Assembly: GCA_964348215.1 (NCBI GenBank)
Contig: CAYGBS010000001.1
Location: 1 to 52,653, forward strand
Direction of reading: 5' to 3'
Length of the DNA stretch: 52,653 nucleotides
Origin: an uncultured Candidatus Bathyarchaeia archaeon
Lineage (GTDB): Archaea > Thermoproteota > Bathyarchaeia > Bathyarchaeales > SOJC01
Below the pieces are notes generated by a model. That model saw only the letters and a program-made list of their open reading frames with translations, had not been told where the DNA came from and did not search any database. How positions within the stretch are numbered: position 1 is the stretch's first letter; each line of letters opens with the position of its first letter. Below, in pieces: positions 28,340 to 42,572 of the stretch. The position numbers were made by a program, and so were the translations under genes.

Positions 28340-28759
28340 TTAGATCGGCTCTATCGGCTCTCTCGGCCTTTGTCTTCGTCTCTTCTCAGCTTCCTCTAAC
28401 ACCTTGCTCTCCTCAGCCTCTTTAAGCTTGGCCAAGGGTATCAGTTCCTTTAACTTCTGGGCAAGTTTTTCTGATTCGTGAGCCTCTAGAGGGATAATAA
28501 TGTCTCTTCGTAGTGGAATCACCAGTCTCAACCGGCCATTATCGTCCACTTTCACAGATTCCACTTCGTGTAACGCGATGTCTAGTGGGATTATAGTTTG
28601 AAATAGAACTCCTACGCTTTCTCTCAGCATAGGGTGAGCCTCAACTACGTCTTCAAGCTCTTTCTTGGCTCCTTCCTTCAAGTCTACTTCGAGTACGTCT
28701 TGATGAAGCTTGACAACAAAGTGAGGCTTGTCAACTTTCAAGACTAGGGTTTCAGGCAT
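28340..28759 (-). CDS. Hypothetical protein (beta-rich N-terminal part, charged helical C-terminal tail)
   Basis: 139-aa ORF directly downstream of the 1101-aa gene. I recognise no motif. Confidence 0.4.
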   Translation of the reverse strand: MPETLVLKVDKPHFVVKLHQDVLEVDLKEGAKKELEDVVEAHPMLRESVGVLFQTIIPLDIALHEVESVKVDDNGRLRLVIPLRRDIIIPLEAHESEKLAQKLKELIPLAKLKEAEESKVLEEAEKRRRQRPREPIEPI

Positions 28760-28904: not shown

Positions 28905-31900
28905 CTAACCGGGACCTCGCAGCCAACCACGTATTCCCAGTTCTTTTACAGTTACCGTTACCTGTTCAAGCTGGCAAGACTTGTGTTCCCCAACTTCATC
29001 CATATACTGAATTTTCGGTGTGAAAGTAAATCTTCCTTTCCTTTTAGGCTTTAGTGTGAGCCTCATCTCCTCTGTTGCAAGTGCAGCCAATTTTCTCCCC
29101 TTTAAGTTAAGTATTCCGTCATTAACTACACATCTCTTAGGCCTTTCTATGAGGTTAAATCCTTCCGGAACTATTTCTTCCATTTTAATCAGAAATGCAG
29201 CGTTCTTTCCAAGATTGGCAAGTTGAATCTCCAAGCCAAAGGTTTCACCCACTGCAACCTCTAGCTTGTGCGCAATTAGATTTGCTTGAATAAATGCACG
29301 TTCAAACTTCAGCAAACCAACAGGCTCTTCCACAGTCAGGCCCGGTGCAGACATTATGCTGGTACTTGATGCTTCAGAAGGCACTCCGACAAGTTCCCTC
29401 AAGGACAATGCGAATTCGCTTTTTTCTTTCACTTCTCTCAAAATCTTGAGAACCTCGCTCTTTTTGCCGGTGTGCCCTGCTGTTTCGTAGAGTCCGGCTG
29501 ACCGTTCAAGACATTTCTCGGCGAGAAGGTAGATCTTCATCTTCTTTTCAGGGTCAATCTCTATTTCAGCACTACTCTTGTAGTTATAAGCATCAAACAG
29601 AATTCCTGTGGCGCTTGTCCATATTGAAGCATTCTCAAAGCCAGCTTTCAAGTAGTAGTTAGCCGCGCTCTCAAGGAATTTCTTTGCTTTAGAGAAATCA
29701 TCTTTCTCTCTTTTCTCTTCAAACATGGTTCCATGTTCCAATGCCTTGCAGAAAGCACTGTTGCCCGAAGCTAGCAAGACTGTTTTGTTTTTCGTGCTGT
29801 GTTCCTTTGCTTTAAGAAACAACTCTGACGACTCGCGGTAGAGTTCAGGTGACGCTCTTCCGTCAGCCATCTTCATCTTTTGCCATGCACGATACATAAA
29901 AGCAAATGCCCTTATTTCTTTTCGATCAATTCCTGTCCCCATTGCTTTTAGAATTTTATCGAAAATTGTAGCAGCTGAATCATATTTTTCAGCGCTTTCA
30001 ACATGATCTCCTTTGCGGTCATATATTTTCGCTTCTTCTACGTTTGACCTCGCAAGGCAATAATCCTTTCTCAGTATAGAGGCTTTACTAAGTTCAATCG
30101 CCTTCTCCTTTTCGTCCAGATTTTGGATCTTCTCGATCTGCCTGTCGAAAGCTTCTTTAGCTTCCTTGAAAAGTTCAGCTGCTTTTTTGAAGGCTCCTAT
30201 TGACTCGACGTTACTTTCTTTCCTACTCCAATCTTCTGCCTGTTCAAGAAGTGACCATGCAGAGAAGTTAGAAGATAAATAGTTCCACAAATGTGAGGAT
30301 CTAAGAAGGTTTGCGGTTTTCTCGTAACGTTCCATCGCGGAGAGATATTTTTCGTGCAAGTGGGCATCTTTTGCTCTCTCAATTTCACTCCAAGCTTTCA
30401 TGTAAGTTGCATAATCGAGATAGAAATCTGCGAAATGAGCGATTTTTTGAGCCGCATTCTTGTATTCTGCGAATGCGTTTTCGAACTCTTCTGCAGCCTT
30501 GCGCTGTTTTCCTAAGAGGTCTAAACCCTTTGCCATTTTCCAGTAGGATTCGGCGACACGGCTTGACAGGTCGACTTTCTTAAATCTCTGAGTTGCATCT
30601 TCATAGATTTCAATTGCTCTAGTCAGGGTCGCCTTGTCTTCAGTAAGTAAGTAAAGCTCATTAAGTATTCCTCCAAACCAGTCTTCAAATCGTGCGAAGG
30701 CAGCGATGAGCGTTGGCACAGGGCGAGACAATATCCATCTTCTACACCTTGACAGGCAATCCTCCATGTCCGAGGCAGCACTTTTTAGAAGAGCTATCTT
30801 TTTGTCTCTGTCTGTTTCAACTCTAGCTAACTCTGCCTTTATTAAGCCTTCATAGTTTTTGCCGACACCGCGAGTCCAATCATTTGATGGAAATACAGTT
30901 TCCACAATCTTGTTGTATCCTTCCCTGTGAATGAGAGCTTCTTCGAGCAGCTCCACTTTTTCAGCCTTTCCAATTTCAAGGTCGAATCGCGCCCGAGCAT
31001 CTAGAGCTTTGCTTAGTGCATGAAGATTCGTGCCAGTGGCGTCGGGGGAACCTGAACGAGATGCGTGCTCTAACCCTTTACGCCCGATTTCCACTGCCTT
31101 TCTTAGGAGAATGCGTTTTTCTTCTGATGTGACTTCTACATTGCGTGCCATAGAGGAGTAGCTTTCCGCGTAGTAGGAGTAGACTTGTGCAATGAACAAG
31201 TCATTGGAGACCAACTGAAGGTATTGGTTGGCATCTTGAGCGTATTTGATGATCTTTCTATGCCCCTCTTTCTTTACGTCGGGATCCTCCTCTCTGAGCA
31301 TCATCCAATTGGTGACAAACGCAAGGACATAGGACGCGATACCTTTCAGGTAGTTATCTTTCAAGGTCTTTCCCTGTTTCAGCATCTCTCTTGCATAGTT
31401 AAGCGAGGATTCAACTTCTTCCGTAAAAAAGAGCGTAGAGAAAGCTGCTGCCCAGTTTGACATGGCTTTGCAGTAGGGATTGCTAACCTCCCTGGAAAGC
31501 TCCAACGCCTTCTTTGAGTAACTCACACTTCTTTGGGAAAGCTCTTTTCTTCTCTCCTTTTGCTCACTGATGTTTGCCGCATACCAGCTTTGAAGGCTGG
31601 CTACGGCATAGGCGCGTACGAGTTCACTTTTGTTCTTAAGCCTCGACAAAACTGCAATTGCCTCGTCAGCACATTTGATTCCCTCTTGAGCCACCATCCT
31701 TATCTCCCTCCAGTCAGATGCAACATACAATTTCTCAAAGTGACACAGCAGTAGATCGTTGCATATCTCCGCGTAACCTTGGTCATCCGCAGCATTCTTA
31801 TATGCCTCTAAGCTCTCACTTCCAGACACACAACACTCTTCAAGCATTTTTCTTCTTTCAGGAGCGGTAGAGGCTAACCAAGAAGTCAAGTAAGCGGCAA

Positions 31901-32210
31901 TAGCATTACACTGAGCAACTTTGCCTTTCTTCTTCAAATGGTCTTCTTTTCCAAAAAGCTCAGCGGCACTTTTGTAGGCCTCCACTGCAAGCTTCCTGAA
32001 TTTTCGGAAGTCTTCTTGGGTTCCAGTTTGTCTGGAAGCTAGACGGTAGCAGGAACCAACCTTTCTCCAAGTCTCTGCTGTGCGGGAAACACTTTTCGGT
32101 TCAAGATTTAGTGCTTTTTCATAGGACTTTGCCGCATCAAGCCATTCAAATTTTCCTTCTTGTTCTATGGCCTTTCTTAGAATGGTCTCCATGTCGCCTT
32201 CTGAAGCCAT
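28905..32210 (-). CDS. Large soluble TPR-like helical-repeat protein with a C-terminal beta-sandwich (CARDB-like) domain
   Basis: 1101 aa with no P-loop and no TM segment. About 950 aa of repeated A/Y/K/E-rich helical hairpins. The last ~120 aa (EVAVGETFGLEIQLANLGKNAAFLIKMEEIVPEGF...FTFTPKIQY...VTVTVKE) have a beta-strand pattern. Confidence 0.6.
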   Translation of the reverse strand: MASEGDMETILRKAIEQEGKFEWLDAAKSYEKALNLEPKSVSRTAETWRKVGSCYRLASRQTGTQEDFRKFRKLAVEAYKSAAELFGKEDHLKKKGKVAQCNAIAAYLTSWLASTAPERRKMLEECCVSGSESLEAYKNAADDQGYAEICNDLLLCHFEKLYVASDWREIRMVAQEGIKCADEAIAVLSRLKNKSELVRAYAVASLQSWYAANISEQKERRKELSQRSVSYSKKALELSREVSNPYCKAMSNWAAAFSTLFFTEEVESSLNYAREMLKQGKTLKDNYLKGIASYVLAFVTNWMMLREEDPDVKKEGHRKIIKYAQDANQYLQLVSNDLFIAQVYSYYAESYSSMARNVEVTSEEKRILLRKAVEIGRKGLEHASRSGSPDATGTNLHALSKALDARARFDLEIGKAEKVELLEEALIHREGYNKIVETVFPSNDWTRGVGKNYEGLIKAELARVETDRDKKIALLKSAASDMEDCLSRCRRWILSRPVPTLIAAFARFEDWFGGILNELYLLTEDKATLTRAIEIYEDATQRFKKVDLSSRVAESYWKMAKGLDLLGKQRKAAEEFENAFAEYKNAAQKIAHFADFYLDYATYMKAWSEIERAKDAHLHEKYLSAMERYEKTANLLRSSHLWNYLSSNFSAWSLLEQAEDWSRKESNVESIGAFKKAAELFKEAKEAFDRQIEKIQNLDEKEKAIELSKASILRKDYCLARSNVEEAKIYDRKGDHVESAEKYDSAATIFDKILKAMGTGIDRKEIRAFAFMYRAWQKMKMADGRASPELYRESSELFLKAKEHSTKNKTVLLASGNSAFCKALEHGTMFEEKREKDDFSKAKKFLESAANYYLKAGFENASIWTSATGILFDAYNYKSSAEIEIDPEKKMKIYLLAEKCLERSAGLYETAGHTGKKSEVLKILREVKEKSEFALSLRELVGVPSEASSTSIMSAPGLTVEEPVGLLKFERAFIQANLIAHKLEVAVGETFGLEIQLANLGKNAAFLIKMEEIVPEGFNLIERPKRCVVNDGILNLKGRKLAALATEEMRLTLKPKRKGRFTFTPKIQYMDEVGEHKSCQLEQVTVTVKELGIRGWLRGPG

Positions 32211-32314: not shown

Positions 32315-33121
32315 TTATAAGCTTCGGTGCTTGAGTCGGATAGAGGCCTTCTTGATTTCATCTTTCTCCAGTTTTGCCGCCCGTCTCAATCTTTCAAGAT
32401 ATTCTTTTCCCTTCTCTGTAAGTCGAAACCCAACTCCTATGTTTCTCGGTCCCCAGCTCTCTTGGATTAACCCGTTCTTCACAAAGGTCTTAATCGTTTG
32501 CTTGGAGATGTCGAAACCTGTATGAAGATCCAAATACGACAGTGGTCGATTGCATAGAGCCGTGAATAAAGCTAGCTTTTCAGATGCAGTAAGCGATTTT
32601 GTTCGACCTAGCTTCGCTGGGCGATTAATGGCAAGAAAATGCCGTCTTTTGCTTGTCCTCACTAATCTCTCTTTGCCCATTCCCAGTCTTGGAAATGAAT
32701 GTTGCTCAAGCTCGGGATTTTTCGAATCAGAAATGTCTGCTGTTGTAGACAGGCTGGACTTGTTCGCACTTTTGGAGCTAAACTTGAAGAGGGCTGTTTT
32801 TTGCCTTAGTTCTTCTTTAGCTCTTGCATCTTTCGTTGCAGCGAAGCTTGCCAACCCTCTGGATAATAAGTTACTGCTTCGTGAGATATAGATATGATTT
32901 TTGTGTTGGCCTTTCTTTTGCGATCTTGAATCAGCACCTCTGGAATGTTTACAAATGAGAATTTCGTCTTGTTCGATTTCCTTTTGAATGTAATAACGAG
33001 CCACAGGTTCTGGGACTCCGAAATGCAGGGCAACCTCTTTCAGGCTACGTGGTTCAGACAAGAAATCTAGGAGGTCAGAAGGCTTGAGACCGCGCATTCG
33101 ACTCGAATGATTAAACTCCAT
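32315..33121 (-). CDS. Putative regulator with two winged-helix domains separated by a Ser/Lys-rich linker
   Basis: Start placed at MEFNHSS. N-terminal LLDFLSEPRSLKEVALHFGVPEPVARYYIQKE. C-terminal LALFTALCNRPLSYLDLHTGFDISKQTIKTFVKNGLIQE...RLTEKGKEYL. The track ORF's extension to 33241 looks non-coding. Confidence 0.55.
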   Translation of the reverse strand: MEFNHSSRMRGLKPSDLLDFLSEPRSLKEVALHFGVPEPVARYYIQKEIEQDEILICKHSRGADSRSQKKGQHKNHIYISRSSNLLSRGLASFAATKDARAKEELRQKTALFKFSSKSANKSSLSTTADISDSKNPELEQHSFPRLGMGKERLVRTSKRRHFLAINRPAKLGRTKSLTASEKLALFTALCNRPLSYLDLHTGFDISKQTIKTFVKNGLIQESWGPRNIGVGFRLTEKGKEYLERLRRAAKLEKDEIKKASIRLKHRSL

Positions 33122-33231
33122 CTCTGATATATAAGCATATATAACATATGTATAATGTATCCAAGTTGCACAGGAAGGGAGAATCATTGCCCCAAAAATC
33201 TGTTGAAGCCATCTTAAGAGGAGAATCGAGA

Positions 33232-33378
33232 ATGACATCAAGAGGGCAGATAACAGTACCGATAGAAATCAGGAGAAAGTTCAGGTTACGACCCGGCGAT
33301 GTCATCTGTTTTCTTGAAGTTGATGGTTCCATAGTTCTCAAACTAGGTCCCCTCGTCTTGACGGAGCAGCAGAGGTAG
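33232..33378 (+). CDS. AbrB/SpoVT-type (MazE-like) DNA-binding mini-protein
   Basis: MTSRGQITVPIEIRRKFRLRPGDVICFLEVDGSIVLKLGP is a classic SpoVT-AbrB swapped-hairpin motif. GAGGAG lies 9 nt upstream of ATG 33232, and the next gene starts 4 nt after its stop. Confidence 0.7.
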   Translation: MTSRGQITVPIEIRRKFRLRPGDVICFLEVDGSIVLKLGPLVLTEQQR

Positions 33379-33382
33379 ATAT

Positions 33383-36184
33383 ATGTCTTCAAAAACCGAC
33401 CTTATGTATGAGATCACGTATAACTCACAGTTTGTTCCACGACGCTCTCCAAGGGTCAATATTAAAGAGTTAATCGTTGACGGTAAAGAAACATACATCA
33501 TGAAGAATCACCTTACTGGAATGTACTATGATGTTGATCAGGTTTCTTATGCGATTTGGAATCTAATTGATGGGCAACGAACTTTAGCTGAGATCAGCAA
33601 AGAGGTTTTGGAAAAATGGCCCGACATTGAACCGGACACCGCTGAGCAAGTTATTTTGTTCCTCGCTGAAATCGGCTGTCTTGAATCAGTTGTTGAAGAC
33701 ACTCGAAAGAAGAGAATAAAGGTGCCTTCAGCTTTTGAGATCGATGTGGTCCTAATCGAAAAAAGTAAGGCTTTTCTGGAAAGTATCCATAATGTGTTTC
33801 GCCCTCTGCTCAAAACACCGCTTTTCTGGGGAATCGTCGTCTTCATAATTCTCTGCAGCATTGCATTTGCAGGGCGATTCACAGCTATCTTTGCAGATGG
33901 CAGCAATTTTAGGATACTCGGATCTACTGTTGTAGGTTTTTTCTTCTATTCCTTCATTGTCTTAGGGCCAACAATTGCAATTCACGAAATCGCTCATGGA
34001 TTGGCTTTGGTTCATTACGGAGGGACTCCCGGCGAAATTGGCACTGGCTTGTTCTACTTTGGTCCCATGTTCTATATAGACGCAACCGATTCATGGATTC
34101 TTGGTAGAAGAGAGCGGATCATGGTCATGATGGCCGGCAATCTTTCAACTCTCATCATTGCCTCGTCGATAGTAGCCATCGGATACATCTTCCCTTACCC
34201 TGCCTCGGTCTCTCATCTCCTTTACATGACTGCTTTCTTCTGCTTTTACGCAACTCTAATGAATATGGCGCCTCCTTTTGAAACAGATGGATACTACGTC
34301 CTAGCTGATCTGGTGAACATTTCGAATTTGAGACAAGAATCATATGGCTACGTCAAATCGATATTCAAGAAAGCCCTCAGAATGCATACAGATGAAAACG
34401 CCTTCACTTCAAAGAAAAAGAAAATTCTTATTGGATTTGCATTTTTGTCTGTGGCTTGGATAATTTACACAGCCTTTCAAACGACCCTTTTTACGTTCTA
34501 CATGGCAGGAGACGCACAAGACGCATTCATCACAGTTTACTCAGCCCTTGCATCTTCTGAAGTTTTGAACCTTGCTCCCGTGGTTGTCAGCATAGCTTCA
34601 GTTCTCTATTTTGGAATGACTCTAACTGGGTATGGTGTAATCCTTATATCAGCAATTAAGAAGGCGTTCAAGGCACCTCTGAAGTTTGAAGCCGTTCACG
34701 ATCGAGACCTCTCGATGTTTTTTTATCTCCCTTCCAAAGCAACTGAAACAACAAGACACTTCGAAGATCAAGTGAAGAAAGTTAGCAAGCAATTCACGCA
34801 GAATTATGAGGTCACTCAAGCTGGGTCGGTACTTGCTGCAACGCTTAGAATGGGTGGCACCAAGCTAGCGTTGAACCAGATTAGTACACACCTTCGAAAA
34901 GTTGAACAATCATTCAGTTCAACATACCAAAGCTTCCTTCAGAAAAATGAGGGAACAATCTTCGAGTCCGCAGAAGACTCCAGCTCCAAAGTGGAGCTTG
35001 CATCACTTCTCAGAAAGATGGGAAATGAAGCTGCAGAGGCCAGAATGCCGGAAGCGAAGAATGCCGTAGAGCAAATAATTGATAGGCAAAGAAAGACTTC
35101 CATGCACCTGATAAACTCAGCTTACGGCTCTGTATGGACAATAGAGCTTCCCCCCTTCCTACTTGAGGAGGTTAAGGATACACTATACCCATCCTTTTTC
35201 GTTCAAGATTTCGCAATAACTGATTTATATGGCGAAACCGAGGAGTTTAAGAAAAGTACAATTTACGGATTTGATTCCCTTTCACAACTGTCATCTCGAA
35301 ATCGAACACATCTCCAGAAAGTGCTTAGGAAACCGGAACAATACCAAGTAGTCTCATTTTTTGAACCTATAAAGAGCCGACTTCTCTTTGTCGGCAGAAC
35401 TGAAAGAATTGAAAAAGACATTCACAAATTTGGCACTCTTTTCATTGGTCAGGCTTGGTGTGGATACCTTGACAAGCTTCTTAACGAGGCCAATCTTACT
35501 CTTTCAGCACTAAGGCAACTACCTCTTTTGAATATGGATGATGTTGAAGTTATGAGTGACGGAGAGATCTTTGTTTTGAACCAAAATCTGTCGGCAATCT
35601 CTACTTTCGAAAAAGCAGTCATAAAGGCCTTAGACGAGTCTGAAGATTTCGCAAAAGATGTAGAAGATAACGTCAAGATGTTCAAGACATACTTTGAAGA
35701 AGATAAATCTCTCAAGATAGGCTTGCTGGACGAGATAGTTGCAATAAACAGAGAGAACCTTGCTAGGCTGCCAAGGAGGCTAAAAAAGTTTAGAAAAGAG
35801 TTTCAAAGAATCGCATCTTCGATCGGGGCGATAATTGTGAGAGTGCAAGAAGAGTCTCGGAAAAGAGAACAAGCTGTTAAAAAGAAGAGCCGGAGAAACC
35901 TATATGCCTATCCAATAGTTGCTATTTTGTCAGCTGTGTTAGTTTTAGCAGGTTTCTACGACAGAACCATGTTGTTGATGATATCCTTCACGATAGTTGC
36001 TGCTTTACTGCAAGTCAGCTACTGGGCCGTATTCTATTCAAGATGGAAACGTTTTCACAGAGCTGGGCAATATCCCTCACAGCCTTTTACCAAAGTGCAA
36101 CTATTCACTCTAGCTTTCACTCAGGCTATATATAGATTCATAGCTACTTACGATGTAATCATTCCTACAAAAGAAAGGTTTTGA
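33383..36184 (+). CDS. PqqD/RRE-like domain fused to an M50-like (site-2-protease-type) intramembrane zinc metalloprotease, with a long helical C-terminal domain and two terminal TM helices
   Basis: Residues ~40-100, YDVDQVSYAIWNLIDGQRTLAEISKEVLEKWPDIEPDTAEQVILFLAEIGCLE, look PqqD-like. The TM-embedded HExxH is IAIHEIAHGLALVHYGG. The second M50 motif is NMAPPFETDGYYVLADL. About 6-7 TM segments are followed by ~420 aa of helical sequence. Confidence 0.7.
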   Translation: MSSKTDLMYEITYNSQFVPRRSPRVNIKELIVDGKETYIMKNHLTGMYYDVDQVSYAIWNLIDGQRTLAEISKEVLEKWPDIEPDTAEQVILFLAEIGCLESVVEDTRKKRIKVPSAFEIDVVLIEKSKAFLESIHNVFRPLLKTPLFWGIVVFIILCSIAFAGRFTAIFADGSNFRILGSTVVGFFFYSFIVLGPTIAIHEIAHGLALVHYGGTPGEIGTGLFYFGPMFYIDATDSWILGRRERIMVMMAGNLSTLIIASSIVAIGYIFPYPASVSHLLYMTAFFCFYATLMNMAPPFETDGYYVLADLVNISNLRQESYGYVKSIFKKALRMHTDENAFTSKKKKILIGFAFLSVAWIIYTAFQTTLFTFYMAGDAQDAFITVYSALASSEVLNLAPVVVSIASVLYFGMTLTGYGVILISAIKKAFKAPLKFEAVHDRDLSMFFYLPSKATETTRHFEDQVKKVSKQFTQNYEVTQAGSVLAATLRMGGTKLALNQISTHLRKVEQSFSSTYQSFLQKNEGTIFESAEDSSSKVELASLLRKMGNEAAEARMPEAKNAVEQIIDRQRKTSMHLINSAYGSVWTIELPPFLLEEVKDTLYPSFFVQDFAITDLYGETEEFKKSTIYGFDSLSQLSSRNRTHLQKVLRKPEQYQVVSFFEPIKSRLLFVGRTERIEKDIHKFGTLFIGQAWCGYLDKLLNEANLTLSALRQLPLLNMDDVEVMSDGEIFVLNQNLSAISTFEKAVIKALDESEDFAKDVEDNVKMFKTYFEEDKSLKIGLLDEIVAINRENLARLPRRLKKFRKEFQRIASSIGAIIVRVQEESRKREQAVKKKSRRNLYAYPIVAILSAVLVLAGFYDRTMLLMISFTIVAALLQVSYWAVFYSRWKRFHRAGQYPSQPFTKVQLFTLAFTQAIYRFIATYDVIIPTKERF

Positions 36185-36260
36185 CCATCGACAAGACGCA
36201 AAAAGAAGAAAAAAAACGTGAAAATGCTGTTCTAGAAGAGATGGGCACCGGGTTGGATGT

Positions 36261-36533
36261 TTACGTCTTTGTTACTCTTTCCTTGGCTGTGACGCGTTCT
36301 TTAGCTTTCAATCGTTCTTTTGCTGCCAATCGTCCCTTAGCTGTTACTCTTTCCTTGGCCGTCACTCGACTTTTAGCCGCCACACGCTCTTTGGCTGTTA
36401 CTCTCTCCTTAGCTGTTACTCTTTCCTTAGGTGTCACACGCTCTTTCATAGCGAATTTTGGAAGAGAACGTTCTTTCAACATGATACGCTTAGGTTTCTT
36501 CTCTTCCAGCTTCTTAGCCTTCTTTTTCGGCAT
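36261..36533 (-). CDS. Highly basic 90-aa protein with ten tandem KERVTA-type hexapeptide repeats
   Basis: MPKKKAKKLEEKKPKR...(KERVTA)n...KERVTKT. A GGAGGTGA Shine-Dalgarno sits 7 nt upstream of the ATG. Arg is kept in all 10 repeats through four different codons (AGA, CGA, CGC, CGT). The same changes are L/R replacements in the overlapping plus-strand ORF. Confidence 0.7.
   Translation of the reverse strand: MPKKKAKKLEEKKPKRIMLKERSLPKFAMKERVTPKERVTAKERVTAKERVAAKSRVTAKERVTAKGRLAAKERLKAKERVTAKERVTKT
36271..36450. repeat. Ten degenerate tandem 18-bp repeats (coding repeat of the KERVTA protein)
   Basis: The units start at 36271, 36289, 36307 and so on, every 18 bp, through 36433. Consensus on the plus strand is gttactctttccttagct. 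Confidence 0.9.
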
Positions 36534-36540
36534 TACCTAC

Positions 36541-36548
36541 TCACCTCC
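36541..36548 (-). promoter_or_regulatory. Shine-Dalgarno sequence GGAGGTGA of the repeat-protein gene
   Basis: The minus strand reads GGAGAGGAGGTGAGTAGGTA-ATG. Confidence 0.6.
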
Positions 36549-36718
36549 TCTCCAATTATTCGTTTAGTGTATATCAGACAAATAGGATTTAAAACATCGT
36601 AAGGAAGGTTTGAAAAGTAAGAATAGCTACCTAGATCGTTGCTTCCATTCACAAGCTCAAGGGCTTTGGCTTTGAAGCAGATTCTTATCATTTCAGAACT
36701 AACCTTGTAAGCGAGCTT

Positions 36719-37012
36719 TCAAGCGAAGAACAGTGCAAACACTGACAAAATCGAACATAACAACCCTAGTAAGAAAGTTACGGCTGTACCTGTCCAGAGT
36801 TTTTTGCGCGTTGGGTAAATACTGTAAAAGAATATGAAAAAAGCTGAAAGAAGGAACATCATAGCACCTAACAAGAGTATAACCTTCAAACCTAAAGCGA
36901 TCTCATTTCCGCTAACCTGCACCACTGCTAAGCTTAAGGCGGCTAGTGTTCCTGGATAAGAGGCATTTACAATGGGCTTGATAAACTTCTCCTCAAACTC
37001 CTCAGCCATCAC
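36719..37012 (-). CDS. Small integral membrane protein (2-3 TM)
   Basis: 97 aa. An acidic N-terminus is followed by hydrophobic stretches (LAALSLAVVQV, VILLLGAMMFLLSAFFIFFY, AVTFLLGLLCSILSVFALFF). Confidence 0.45.
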   Translation of the reverse strand: MMAEEFEEKFIKPIVNASYPGTLAALSLAVVQVSGNEIALGLKVILLLGAMMFLLSAFFIFFYSIYPTRKKLWTGTAVTFLLGLLCSILSVFALFFA

Positions 37013-40087: not shown

Positions 40088-42028
40088 TCACATTTTCTCA
40101 GGAGCTACAATGCCGATCAGATTTAACGCATTTCTGAGTACTTTGCTAACTGCTTCAACCAGCTCTAGTCGAGCGGCGCTTAAAGCTTTCGGCTTCGCTT
40201 TTATAACTGGTAAAGCATTGTAGAAACTGTTGAACTTGTCGGCTAAAGCATTTGCGTAGTCGGCGATTGCGTTGGGTTTGAGTTTTTCTGCGGAGTTGAT
40301 GAAAGTTTCTGGAAAACGTGCCAGCATCAAAACAAGATCTTGCTCTAATGGTTCTGTCAGTAGTGAATAATCTGGGTTTTCAGGTTTCTTCTGCGCTTTT
40401 CTCAAAATGCTGCGAGCCCGTGCATGAGAATACTGAATGTTAGGTGCGCTGTTTCTCTCAAAGTCTATCACTCTATCCCATGTAAAAACCACGGGCTTTA
40501 CGGGATCAACTACAACAAGGGCATATTTGAGGGCTCCAACTCCAACGATCTTCGAGATTTTCATCTTTTCTTCTTCGGATAGTTGAGGTGATCGCTTCTC
40601 CACTTCTTCACGAGCTCTTTTTATGGCTTCAGCCATTACTTCGTCAAGGGCTATGTAGCGTCCTCTACGGCTGGACATCTTGTATCCTGGTAGTGTTACT
40701 AGATTGTATGCGAAATGCGTAAGGTTCCTTGCTTGCTCAGCATGCCCTAACGCCCATACGGCCAGTTTCAATTGTAGTTGTGGCAGCTTTTGTTCCATTC
40801 CGACGACGTTGATCACTTTTGTTGCCCTCTTGAATTTCCACAGAGTGTAGGGGATGTCTCGGGTCGTGTAGAGGGTTGTGCCGTCTGCGCGTACCAATGT
40901 CAAAGAGGGGATCTCGTAGTCGTCTCTTATGCCAAGGGAGCGTTTCAGCTTGTAGTCTTCTGCGACTTTGTTGGCGTCGAATTCTAGAACGGGGCCTTCT
41001 CGAAAAACGTAGTTAGTCTTTTTCAAAGTTTCCAACGTTTTTGCTGTATCACTATTCCAGGTGAACTTGCTTTCCCAATCCCAAGAGTTGAAGAGAATCT
41101 CTGCTTGAGTAAGAGTTTCTTTTATGCCTTCTAGTGAGAGCTTGCATACTTCGCGAACAAGTTTTTTGGCTTCTTCTTCGCCATTTTCATATGCACGGTT
41201 CAAATTATCAGCTATAGTCTCGATGTCTTTGCTGGCTCTTTCGAGAAGTTGGTAAAAGAGTTTTGGGTGTTTTCTTTCCAATTCAGCTGCAATCGAAGTC
41301 CATTCGCCCAGTTGTCTATGTAACTGCTGAACAGTTTCAGATGCTGGGTTGTTTTCTCTTTCTATTGCCTTCTTAAGTCTCTGGATTTCCATAATACAGC
41401 TGGCTAGAGTATAGATTAGACCGATATAGTGGTCCGGCTTTTCCTCTACGGTTGGTCTACCCAGTTTCTTGTATCCATATGCAGCCACTGCAGTTTGGCG
41501 TCCAACATCGTCAACATAAAAATGCCTAAAGACCGTGTGACCCCTTGCAGCCAAGATCCGCGCAAGTGCGTCTCCCAGGAAGGGATTTCTTGCTTGACCA
41601 ATGTGGATGGGTGATATGGGGTTCGCGCTTGTGTGTTCTACAATAATCTTCTCCGGCTCTTCTGTTTTGACATGGCCATATGCTACATCCAAAGCCGTAA
41701 CAGACTCAATTGTTATCTTCAAGAGTCTACCAAAGTCCACGTAAAAGTTCGTATATCCTCCCCCAGCGGCTTTTACAGCACTTATGAGTGGGAAATCTTT
41801 TACTTTGATGGAACTCACGATTTGCTCTGCCAATTTGCGCGGTTGCCTTTTCAGCTTCTTTCCAAGTTCAAAAAAAACTGCTGAAGACAGGTTTCCAAAC
41901 TTAGGGTTAGCTGGAATTTCCAGCAAAAACGATTCGATAGAGATGGATGGATAAAGACTAGTGAACGACTTTTTCAAAGCTCTCCTGCAATCTCTTCGAA
42001 AGTTGCCGAAAGGATTCACGGAGACCAT
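40088..42028 (-). CDS. argS: Arginine--tRNA ligase
   Basis: HTSANPISPIHIGQARN (HIGH region), a class I fold, and a C-terminal DALR-type anticodon-binding domain. Start placed at MVSVNPFG; the track ORF's upstream extension looks non-ArgRS. Confidence 0.9.
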   Translation of the reverse strand: MVSVNPFGNFRRDCRRALKKSFTSLYPSISIESFLLEIPANPKFGNLSSAVFFELGKKLKRQPRKLAEQIVSSIKVKDFPLISAVKAAGGGYTNFYVDFGRLLKITIESVTALDVAYGHVKTEEPEKIIVEHTSANPISPIHIGQARNPFLGDALARILAARGHTVFRHFYVDDVGRQTAVAAYGYKKLGRPTVEEKPDHYIGLIYTLASCIMEIQRLKKAIERENNPASETVQQLHRQLGEWTSIAAELERKHPKLFYQLLERASKDIETIADNLNRAYENGEEEAKKLVREVCKLSLEGIKETLTQAEILFNSWDWESKFTWNSDTAKTLETLKKTNYVFREGPVLEFDANKVAEDYKLKRSLGIRDDYEIPSLTLVRADGTTLYTTRDIPYTLWKFKRATKVINVVGMEQKLPQLQLKLAVWALGHAEQARNLTHFAYNLVTLPGYKMSSRRGRYIALDEVMAEAIKRAREEVEKRSPQLSEEEKMKISKIVGVGALKYALVVVDPVKPVVFTWDRVIDFERNSAPNIQYSHARARSILRKAQKKPENPDYSLLTEPLEQDLVLMLARFPETFINSAEKLKPNAIADYANALADKFNSFYNALPVIKAKPKALSAARLELVEAVSKVLRNALNLIGIVAPEKM

Positions 42029-42150
42029 GCTGCAATTACCTGTGAAAGCATATCCAACCTCACAAACCTTGCAGACACCCTTTTCCGAGGTAACTAATAA
42101 ACTGTTTGACAGGTAAGGAAACAAGAAAACTGGTAAGGCTCTTTCCCAAG

Positions 42151-42363
42151 CTATGTTCTCAGCGATTTTGGCGGGATATTGTCTAGGTCCAAACTTGCTT
42201 GTTTCCCCGAAATCTTCTGCACGGTCCAATGTAGAACTTCATGACTTAGAACGTCTTCAATCTTGCCGTCGTGTTCACCAAAAATATAGATCTCCCCTCC
42301 GCCTGTGTCGTAAATCCCATAGATTGGAGGAAAATGAAAGTGAAATCGCAGCCTCCTACGCAT
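42151..42363 (-). CDS. Small hypothetical ORF with an HExxH motif (uncertain)
   Basis: 70 aa containing ...EIYIFGEHDGKIEDVLSHEVLHW.... Lies between tRNA-Arg and argS. Its 3' end overlaps the open frame upstream of argS, which itself encodes CKVCEVGYAFTGNC. Confidence 0.25.
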   Translation of the reverse strand: MRRRLRFHFHFPPIYGIYDTGGGEIYIFGEHDGKIEDVLSHEVLHWTVQKISGKQASLDLDNIPPKSLRT

Positions 42364-42493: not shown

Positions 42494-42572
42494 TGGCGGG
42501 CCCGTGGGGATTTGAACCCCAGATCTCCGGCTCCGCAGGCCAGCGTCCTAATCCAGACTAGACCACGGGCCC
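42494..42572 (-). tRNA. tRNA-Arg (anticodon GCG), CCA encoded
   Basis: Minus strand: GGGCCCG-UG-GUCU-AGUCUGGAUUA-GGAC-G-CUGGC-CUGCGGA-GCCGG-AGAUC-UGGGG-UUCAAAU-CCCCA-CGGGCCC-G-CCA. It folds by hand into a full cloverleaf with anticodon loop CU-GCG-GA. Confidence 0.9.

Follow-up and report, generated by a model that had tools for sequence, protein, structure and literature searches.

A peptide-recognition domain fused to an intramembrane metalloprotease lies in a conserved Bathyarchaeia gene module with a candidate repeat-protein substrate

What does a large archaeal membrane protease that carries its own peptide-recognition domain act upon? The question is raised by a 933-amino-acid (aa) open reading frame (ORF) in a 52,653-nucleotide (nt) stretch of DNA from an uncultured Bathyarchaeia archaeon (assembly GCA_964348215.1, contig CAYGBS010000001.1, positions 1 to 52,653; hereafter the window). 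A first-pass annotation of this stretch had described the ORF as a RiPP recognition element (RRE; RiPP, ribosomally synthesized peptide with post-translational modifications) joined to a site-2 protease (S2P). The ORF is present at 33383..36184 on the plus strand, as described there, and is a real gene, not an artefact. Together with a winged-helix gene, an AbrB gene and a small convergent gene encoding a leader followed by repeats, it forms a conserved module. By analogy with known systems, we propose that the protein belongs to a family of archaeal intramembrane metalloproteases that are leader-guided, which occurs in Bathyarchaeia and has distant members among Thaumarchaeota-labelled metagenome-assembled genomes (MAGs), and that this family processes the repeat protein; we put the probability of this reading at roughly 0.5. 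The genes of the module in the window are as follows.

32315..33121, minus strand: winged-helix protein of 268 aa, divergent from the AbrB–protease pair (weak Pfam matches to HVO_A0261_N and HTH_45; called as a 268-aa gene)
33148..33378, plus strand: AbrB/SpoVT-fold protein, 76 aa as called, with the true start between 33148 and ~33196 (profile matches)
33383..36184, plus strand: RRE/S2P-like intramembrane metalloprotease with a family-specific C-terminal domain (933-aa ORF)
36261..36533, minus strand: small basic protein of 90 aa, with a Lys-rich leader containing an LPKF motif and ~10 KERVTA-type hexapeptide repeats (tandem repeat of 18/72 nt; NCBI gene call)

The protease itself was dissected by profile searches and with an AlphaFold2 (AF2) model built on 89 homologues, which has a mean predicted local distance difference test (pLDDT) score of 81.9. 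Its parts, all on the plus strand, are listed here.

33455..33670, plus strand: RRE, a PqqD-like winged helix, residues 25–96 (PF05402, AF2 fold, Foldseek and PDB profile match)
33815..34666, plus strand: six-helix membrane protease core, residues 145–428 (NF041824, invariant motifs, fold of the M. jannaschii S2P)
33983..33997, plus strand: HEIAH motif (HExxH)
34262..34291, plus strand: NMAPPFETDG motif (NxxPxxxxDG)
34694..35905, plus strand: family-exclusive cytoplasmic domain, residues 438–841, with two alpha+beta modules and long helices (AF2, profile search)
35909..36148, plus strand: two or three C-terminal hydrophobic helices, residues 843–922 (AF2 helices 843–859, 863–892 and 900–922)

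The sequence strings quoted in the first-pass annotation were all recovered, namely YAIWNLIDG...GCLE at residues 56–101, HEIAH at 201–205 and NMAPPFETDGY at 294–304. The claim that the protein opens with a PqqD-type RRE was borne out by both profile and structure. The Pfam PqqD model (PF05402) matches the window protein with 33.4 bits against a cut-off of 23.4 (E 5.9e-8), and 19 of 20 homologues also match it. The AF2 model shows the canonical b1b2b3-a1a2a3 topology, with strands at 25–32, 35–42 and 47–51 and helices at 53–61, 68–78 and 86–96. The top PDB match in Foldseek is the leader-bound lasso-peptide RRE TbiB1 (5v1v/5v1u; probability 1.0), with a template modelling (TM) score of 0.70–0.71, followed by 6jx3 (a lasso-peptide RRE with leader) and then by PqqD and the CteB RRE; probabilities run from 0.92 to 1.0 over these matches, and the small RRE chains have TM scores of about 0.7. 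A PDB profile search likewise matched the RRE to TbiB1 (E 0.006). The domain is preceded by residues 1–24 (33383..33454), with the pattern SKTDLMYEIxYNPxFVPxRSP. Conservation of this segment exceeds that of the RRE, and it may be an autoinhibitory pseudo-leader or bind a partner.

The protease core was recognised by the NCBIfam model NF041824 (daptide_HExxH, ‘daptide biosynthesis intramembrane metalloprotease’), which matches residues 38–369 with profile positions 18–343 of 379 (E 1.2e-44), and by the YydH/LiaK epipeptide protease model NF058609 (E 5.6e-13). Both S2P hallmarks are present, and HEIAH lies within a transmembrane helix (182–211 in the AF2 model), as had been read from the sequence; among the 89 homologues H201, E202, H205, P297, D302 and G303 are invariant, and N294 is nearly so. 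A separate AF2 model of residues 108–432 (pLDDT 80.3, predicted TM score 0.77) returned a single high-probability fold match, the M. jannaschii S2P 3b4r (probability 1.0/0.99, E 1.6e-3), at a TM score of just 0.43–0.45. The suggested relationship to the M50 peptidases stood in part. The window protein has no match to Pfam Peptidase_M50 (PF02163) at E≤1, but it matches NF041824, its top fold match is an S2P, and 8 of 20 homologues match PF02163 at E≤0.01 (best E 1.3e-6). The positive-inside rule, applied to the AF2 helix limits, would place the N-terminus, both motifs and everything beyond residue 428 in the cytoplasm, with HExxH and NxxPxxxxDG predicted at the cytoplasmic ends of their helices. 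Profiles and predicted fold thus support the fusion of an RRE with an intramembrane metalloprotease of the S2P type, the combination from which recognition and cleavage of a specific peptide had been proposed.

The C-terminal half departs from its earlier description. The ~420 aa that follow the transmembrane core had been taken as helical, and AF2 shows two alpha+beta modules besides long helices; two terminal transmembrane helices had been counted, and the model gives two or three. These terminal helices show a weak similarity to DUF2207_C (Pfam, E 5e-4). The cytoplasmic domain has no significant relative in Pfam, nor was one found in the PDB, where both a profile search and a Foldseek run with the full model returned nothing significant beyond the RRE. 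A profile of this domain had 47 matches in all among 1.84 billion representative proteins. Of these, 23 are at least 880 aa long and align at about residues 400–860, and the shorter ones look like fragments; in four distant members from that search, whose sequences were read, the RRE and both protease motifs are retained. The C-terminal half is strongly conserved, and the many invariant polar residues of the domain include H439, R441, E508, E588, D609, K623, R672, E674, D697, N789, E791 and N792. An impression of two palm- or cyclase-like beta-alpha-beta-beta-alpha modules (‘LRMGGT’, ‘VGRTE’) was dropped as unsupported, since Pfam at E≤5 yielded only coiled-coil noise and no cyclase, GGDEF or palm domain. 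On sequence comparison, the ~410-aa cytoplasmic domain with the terminal transmembrane helices is new and confined to this archaeal family.

Homologues of the protease form 170 clusters at 90% identity; nearly all of the 120 listed are full length (~925–960 aa), and the named ones among those listed come from Bathyarchaeia MAGs. GTDB genomes provided 14 loci, 13 from Bathyarchaeia and one from a Thaumarchaeota-labelled MAG at 30% identity, which with 80 metagenome loci made up a census of 94 related loci. In the 37 complete loci, defined as Bathyarchaeia loci with a complete protease gene and enough flank, a winged-helix gene was found in 36 and an AbrB gene in 35, and the leader-and-repeat gene adjoins the protease in 53 of 57 loci. 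The first-pass annotation had named homologues without a conserved neighbourhood as evidence against its proposal, and had asked whether AbrB and a small repeat or peptide gene accompany the protease; the neighbourhood proved to be conserved, with both genes in it. The winged-helix gene lies divergently upstream in 77 loci and downstream in 5, and AbrB follows the protease on the same strand at 420–970 nt in 44 loci, directly precedes it in 8, and in 3 lies upstream and on the opposite strand. This linkage outlasts rearrangement, in that AbrB, the winged-helix gene and the repeat gene switch sides and the outer flanks differ, which argues for a functional connection kept by selection and not by inertia. 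The conserved neighbourhood with its leader-and-repeat gene is, like the C-terminal domain, new beyond the known fusion.

Two further points from the survey may be noted. Assembly GCA_012975005.1 holds two versions of the module (loci L023 and L096), with proteases 48% and 100% identical to that of the window, so that several system-bearing lineages co-occur in one sample. Locus L010 (7992..9857 of CP070679.1, a closed MAG chromosome) holds a truncated homologue, a 621-aa ORF matching residues 2–566, with neither AbrB nor repeat gene, and this copy may be decaying.

The small gene encodes the candidate substrate. The repeat protein of the window starts MPKKKAKKLEEKKPKRIMLKERSLPKF, its N-terminal stretch is given as MPKKKAKKLEEKKPKRIMLKERSLPKFAMKERV, and about ten KERVTA-type units follow. 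A strong Shine–Dalgarno sequence (GGAGGTGA) precedes the ATG of the gene by 8 nt, and its stop codon is followed by an oligo-T run that would act as a terminator. On the NCBI contig with an identical protease it is called, at 90 aa on the minus strand, and a 60-aa equivalent in another locus was left uncalled by the Joint Genome Institute. The typical location is on the opposite strand between the protease stop and AbrB, where almost every locus has a small ORF. Tandem Repeats Finder detected a tandem repeat within ~500 nt downstream of the protease in 49 of the 57 loci and upstream in 4 more, with periods that are all multiples of 3; in 3 of these 4 upstream cases the contig stops inside the repeat. 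The contigs of L005 (1..88), L060 (1..123) and L065 (1..122) end in a perfect 24-/36-nt tandem repeat just upstream of the protease, and these loci belong to the clade whose winged-helix gene lies downstream. The repeats thus appear to break assemblies, so that the small genes are under-sampled; leader-and-repeat genes are also easily missed by annotation, and such systems are therefore likely to be under-counted.

Across the loci, the N-terminal ~25 aa of the small protein are conserved and the remainder is hypervariable. The commonest leader is Lys/Glu-rich (MEEKKxxKPxEKVKI[YF]PKLxTP), and the other types keep a [YFL]PK[LMF]-like motif. The repeat units differ completely among lineages, and include ARAP/AKAP, SRAP, TRAS, GRAT, PMKT, ARPQ, KLAGGP, AKSGLG, KVGLKAAP, TKTLARLD, ELKPRG and RLTPNQLAAM. 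Entropy summed over the leader by codon position is 8.6/8.8/23.3 (19 distinct sequences), a pattern that marks the leader as protein-coding on that strand and under purifying selection. Matches to a hidden Markov model (HMM) of the leader at E<1e-3 number at most one per locus and always adjoin the protease gene. At a median length of ~99 aa, the repeat proteins contain 25% Lys plus Arg, have an isoelectric point of 11.6 and a grand average of hydropathy (GRAVY) of −0.8, and are nearly free of Cys (a few entries are wrong-frame picks). They have no signal peptide and no transmembrane segment, which suggests that they are cytoplasmic, as predicted for the RRE and the active site.

One repeat protein stands apart. 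The 218-aa product of L009 (10870..11526, minus strand), with RLTPNQLAAM units, scores above threshold against two Pfam models, PF25296 ‘Decapeptide repeat’ (E 3e-18) and Pentapeptide_4, and some repeat variants may therefore fold as beta-helices and not be disordered; the other repeat proteins match no known family. A plus-strand ORF at 36181..36567 (128 aa, hydrophobic, overlapping the protease stop) was considered as a gene and rejected as an antisense shadow of the repeat gene, because the codon-position pattern of the homologues, the Shine–Dalgarno sequence and terminator, and the gene call all favour the minus strand. This shadow ORF could be mis-annotated as a coupled downstream gene.

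In the reading that we favour, the RRE would bind the conserved leader of the small repeat protein. The protease would act on the cytoplasmic side of the membrane and separate the leader from the repeats, and this cut would release or activate the polycationic portion. The logic would be that of MpaP with daptide precursors or of SpoIVFB with pro-sigma-K, both compared below. AbrB and the winged-helix protein would serve as transcription regulators of the module, and the C-terminal domain would regulate or oligomerise the protease. The repeat protein is probably the RRE substrate because it has the anatomy of a precursor, with a fixed leader and a free-running remainder, and because its adjacency to the protease is near-obligatory. 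A role in peptide maturation is supported by the closest characterised relatives of the enzyme, which are dedicated peptide-maturation proteases. Most loci have AbrB and the repeat gene divergently transcribed, as is classical for a regulator and the gene that it controls, and the two may form such a pair. No known tailoring-enzyme family was found by Pfam and NCBIfam in the window or among the conserved neighbours, which points to proteolytic maturation rather than a classical RiPP pathway. Of the components that define a classical RiPP cluster, a candidate precursor is present and a recognisable modifying enzyme is absent.

Several points weigh against this reading. The repeat protein is a candidate substrate by the position of its gene and by analogy. 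An S2P normally acts on substrates that are embedded in the membrane or, like daptide cores, strongly hydrophobic, and the repeat proteins, at the GRAVY value of −0.8 given above, are very hydrophilic. There are several leader types, and what they share is a short [YFL]PK[LMF]-like motif, which 35 of the 44 scored ORFs have (wrong-frame picks account for some of the others). The leader profile returned nothing at E≤0.001 from 5.8 billion proteins, the profile being too short for a database of that size. Finally, locus L013, on the Thaumarchaeota MAG contig JAPCJK010000051.1 (4444..11137), contains the protease, a 1101-aa protein and a small membrane protein that are also found beside Bathyarchaeia proteases, and has no recognisable repeat gene, AbrB or winged helix-turn-helix gene, so that the deepest conserved partners of the protease may be others than these three.

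In place of the winged-helix and AbrB genes, L013 has upstream a TrmB-like regulator and a TPR-rich 657-aa protein (labels assigned by eye from the sequence). Two small ORFs flank its protease on opposite strands and share GHGSK..SKET.VE, and one of them has AYPRL.

A wider proposal built on the favoured reading is that the module represents tailoring-free, RRE-dependent maturation in Archaea, in which the protease frees polycationic repeat peptides, possibly many units per precursor, the repeats evolve freely while the leader stays fixed, and the C-terminal domain could serve as a new kind of module, either regulatory or catalytic. This we advance tentatively and with more doubt than belief. 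We found no description in the literature of an RRE-dependent maturation pathway in Archaea without a tailoring enzyme, and to our knowledge RRE-guided proteolysis has so far been a bacterial natural-product theme.

AbrB offers a different candidate substrate. The identity of the protein is clear from the AbrB domain profiles, which it matches above cut-off (PF04014, 31–32 bits versus 24.7; TIGR01439, 35.6 versus 28.3), and its scores for the PrlF and MazE equivalogs of NCBIfam are far under their cut-offs. Its stop codon (TAG, 33376–33378) is separated from the protease ATG at 33383 by the 4-nt gap that had been reported, and this ATG is preceded by a Shine–Dalgarno-like AGAGGT element. The reported length of 48 aa was too short. 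The segment upstream of 33232, VEAI[LF]RG[EQ]S[KR][MI]T, is conserved and has the codon-position entropy of coding sequence (5.7/3.6/20.0), and many of the 45 listed loci, for example L001, L011, L015 and L017, have Ile in place of the Met at 33232. Gene calls are longer, about 60–76 aa: mostly 59–72 aa among the matches listed of 138 homologue clusters, and 76 aa (33148..33378) on the NCBI contig with the identical 933-aa gene. The start at 33232 is thus very probably wrong and the ATG there internal. Translational coupling of AbrB to the protease, described in the first-pass annotation, did not hold up as a general trait. Adjacency is restricted to the clade of the window itself (eight loci: the window, L001, L002, L007, L015, L025, L063 and L070), and since AbrB lies elsewhere in 44 + 3 loci, coupling is a local feature and not a property of the system.

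The RRE might then recognise AbrB by its N-terminal extension, or the winged-helix protein by one of its segments, and the recognised protein might be trimmed or destroyed by the protease, switching expression of the module with the repeat gene as the regulated target. Models for such regulated proteolysis are SpoIVFB, which activates pro-sigma-K, and RseP, which removes RseA. AbrB is linked to the protease as tightly as the repeat gene is (35 of 37), and it is far more conserved than the enzyme, being 66–88% identical (median 78%; tblastn with two queries, window and L011, the better match being counted) where the proteases are 40–45% identical. The conserved coding extension, KTE[IV]EPSVEAI[FL]RGQS[KR], precedes the swapped-hairpin domain and is a plausible linear recognition motif, and no toxin partner is at hand to explain AbrB as an antitoxin, none having been found among the conserved neighbours with Pfam, NCBIfam, PADLOC or PHROGs. 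However, the extension is contiguous with a folded domain and has no hypervariable part such as RRE substrates have, two separate DNA-binding proteins are more simply understood as regulators, and the constant presence of a leader-and-repeat gene beside the protease would be left unexplained. We consider this explanation unlikely.

In the winged-helix protein, conservation is limited to the C-terminal ~95-aa winged helix-turn-helix, the N-terminal part being variable and of low complexity in the alignment. Its start in the window is likely the Met at 33121, and the gap between this start and the AbrB ORF (33122..33147) consists of 26 AT-rich nt with TATA-like elements.

Returning to the repeat protein as substrate, it could also be the multi-core precursor of a genuine RiPP cluster, modified by enzymes that have escaped recognition, with the protease as leader peptidase, possibly excising many short cationic peptides. 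The C-terminal domain of the protease and two of the accessory genes near the module would be among the candidates for such enzymes; the accessory genes of the window are the following.

28340..28759, minus strand: conserved protein of 139 aa (cluster in 23 loci, usually beside the 1101-aa gene)
28905..32210, minus strand: helical-repeat protein of 1101 aa with a C-terminal beta-sandwich (weak DUF11, MIT and TPR matches)
36719..37009, minus strand: small membrane protein, called as 96 aa

The many invariant polar residues of the C-terminal domain suggest catalysis or specific binding, an RRE accompanies a precursor-like gene, and the 1101-aa and 139-aa genes recur (15 and ~23 loci). The 1101-aa gene lies within 5 kb in 15 of the 37 complete loci, as does a gene for a membrane protein of ~97 aa in 19. 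Against a RiPP cluster stand the lack of any known tailoring-enzyme family noted above, the distribution of the 1101-aa and 139-aa genes, which more than half of the complete loci lack, and the repeat units themselves, which share no modifiable residue, are almost Cys-free and are unrelated between lineages. The 1101-aa protein has no sequence match in the PDB, and the 139-aa protein has none in Pfam, NCBIfam or the PDB. A cluster of this kind is thus also improbable. The 96-aa membrane protein, with its conserved N-terminus EEFEEKFIxPIxNASYPGT, could be an alternative, membrane-embedded substrate.

It is equally necessary to ask whether the neighbourhood has any functional meaning. The enzyme could be a housekeeping membrane protease whose neighbours are kept by lineage-specific synteny, and whose RRE-like domain binds, for example, its own N-terminus (SKTDLMYEIxYNP) as an autoinhibitory segment. 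The family is narrow and the sampled genomes are related, so common descent may account for part of the synteny; the first 24 residues of the protein are, as noted, more conserved than the RRE; and the outer flanks of the window hold housekeeping genes for acetyl-CoA synthetase, H+-pyrophosphatase, HypF and arginyl-tRNA synthetase. Such flanks, together with a G+C content that is even throughout at ~42–47%, indicate a chromosomal region with no obvious island. Yet the neighbourhood survives repeated rearrangement while the outer flanks differ, and the nearest characterised relatives are dedicated peptide-maturation proteases, which together make this explanation quite unlikely. Among the flanking genes, tRNA-Arg(GCG) at 42494..42572 (minus strand) lies ~260 nt from the arginyl-tRNA synthetase gene at 40088..42229 on the same strand, an ordinary but tidy pairing.

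A toxin–antitoxin or defence module, with AbrB as antitoxin and the polycationic repeat peptide as a toxic or antimicrobial effector that the protease frees from a neutralising Lys/Glu-rich pro-region, would suit the AbrB/MazE/PrlF fold, which is typical of antitoxins, and the strongly cationic repeats with their mixed-charge leader, but it is very improbable given that none of the five core gene products matches PADLOC (a marginal CARF_TM hit, E 0.01, falls on the 1101-aa neighbour), that no known toxin domain was found, that the module is chromosomal among housekeeping genes, and that the similar numbers of protease and AbrB clusters (170 and 138) suggest about one copy of each per genome and not a mobile element. 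Nothing detected makes the giant protease a toxin partner of AbrB, as no toxin, PADLOC or toxin–antitoxin-type match was obtained. A defence or phage origin was rejected on that marginal PADLOC hit and on PHROGs, where the matches were weak (an AbrB antitoxin-like family at E 2.6e-4, and families of unknown function at E 0.001–0.003 for the winged-helix and repeat proteins).

If leader-guided processing of the repeat protein is correct, the same recognition-plus-S2P logic would extend across Bathyarchaeia, an abundant uncultured sediment lineage, with a candidate substrate and two candidate regulators. The candidate enzyme–substrate pair is open to direct test with the RRE (residues 1–135) and a leader peptide of ~25 aa. 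The module would offer a possible route to archaeal cationic peptides, and the C-terminal domain would be a new accessory element in the regulation of S2Ps.

Among known systems, the lasso-peptide B1/B2 proteins share the recognition step. TbiB1 (5v1v) is the best structural match of the archaeal RRE (TM score 0.71), and in lasso peptides RRE-bound leaders with a Tyr/Pro/Leu motif direct the leader peptidase. B2, however, is a soluble cysteine protease, and the archaeal module has no macrolactam synthetase. The M. jannaschii S2P (3b4r) shares the archaeal S2P core, but its chains of ~216–218 residues are too short for an RRE or the C-terminal domain. YydH/LiaK (NF058609) is likewise a membrane HExxH protease devoted to maturing a small ribosomal peptide; its 246-position model matches only the transmembrane core (residues 151–317), the archaeal RRE falling outside, and it sits in a radical-SAM epimerase operon. 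SpoIVFB, the S2P of Bacillus subtilis, removes the N-terminal pro-sequence from pro-sigma-K, a cytoplasmic, non-transmembrane protein, and carries a C-terminal cytoplasmic regulatory CBS domain. The archaeal family differs in that recognition would go via the RRE, the C-terminal domain is unrelated to CBS and the candidate substrate is no sigma factor.

The closest comparison is with the bacterial daptide leader peptidase MpaP/DapP (NF041824). The two have in common an N-terminal RRE fused to an S2P-type intramembrane HExxH metalloprotease, homology across the RRE and the whole transmembrane core (E 1e-44 to 1e-50), and a gene beside small genes with a conserved N-terminal leader motif. They differ in host, which is archaeal rather than Actinomycetota or Bacillota, and in the ~560 extra C-terminal residues of the archaeal family (the unique cytoplasmic domain and transmembrane helices). 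The candidate substrates differ too, being hydrophilic polycationic tandem repeats with no ELExMEAP leader, hydrophobic helical core or C-terminal Thr. The archaeal proteins score 153–170 bits against the equivalog cut-off of 300 bits (153 for the window protein, and 164 and 170, E 4e-48 and 1e-49, for the two most divergent members). Neither the window neighbours nor the conserved neighbour families include the DUF-RRE protein MpaB, an alcohol-dehydrogenase-type decarboxylase, an aminotransferase, a methyltransferase or ELExMEAP precursors with a C-terminal Thr, and enzymes of the MpaC, MpaD and MpaM types are likewise missing nearby. Identity as a daptide cluster was rejected on this cut-off and gene context. 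In the literature searched, neither an archaeal RRE-protease nor a RiPP system of Bathyarchaeia is specifically described. The architecture had been held to have no characterised precedent, but an RRE fused N-terminally to an S2P already defines MpaP/DapP in bacteria (NF041824; Ren et al., bioRxiv 10.1101/2023.03.08.531785), so that only its occurrence in archaea and the C-terminal half are new.

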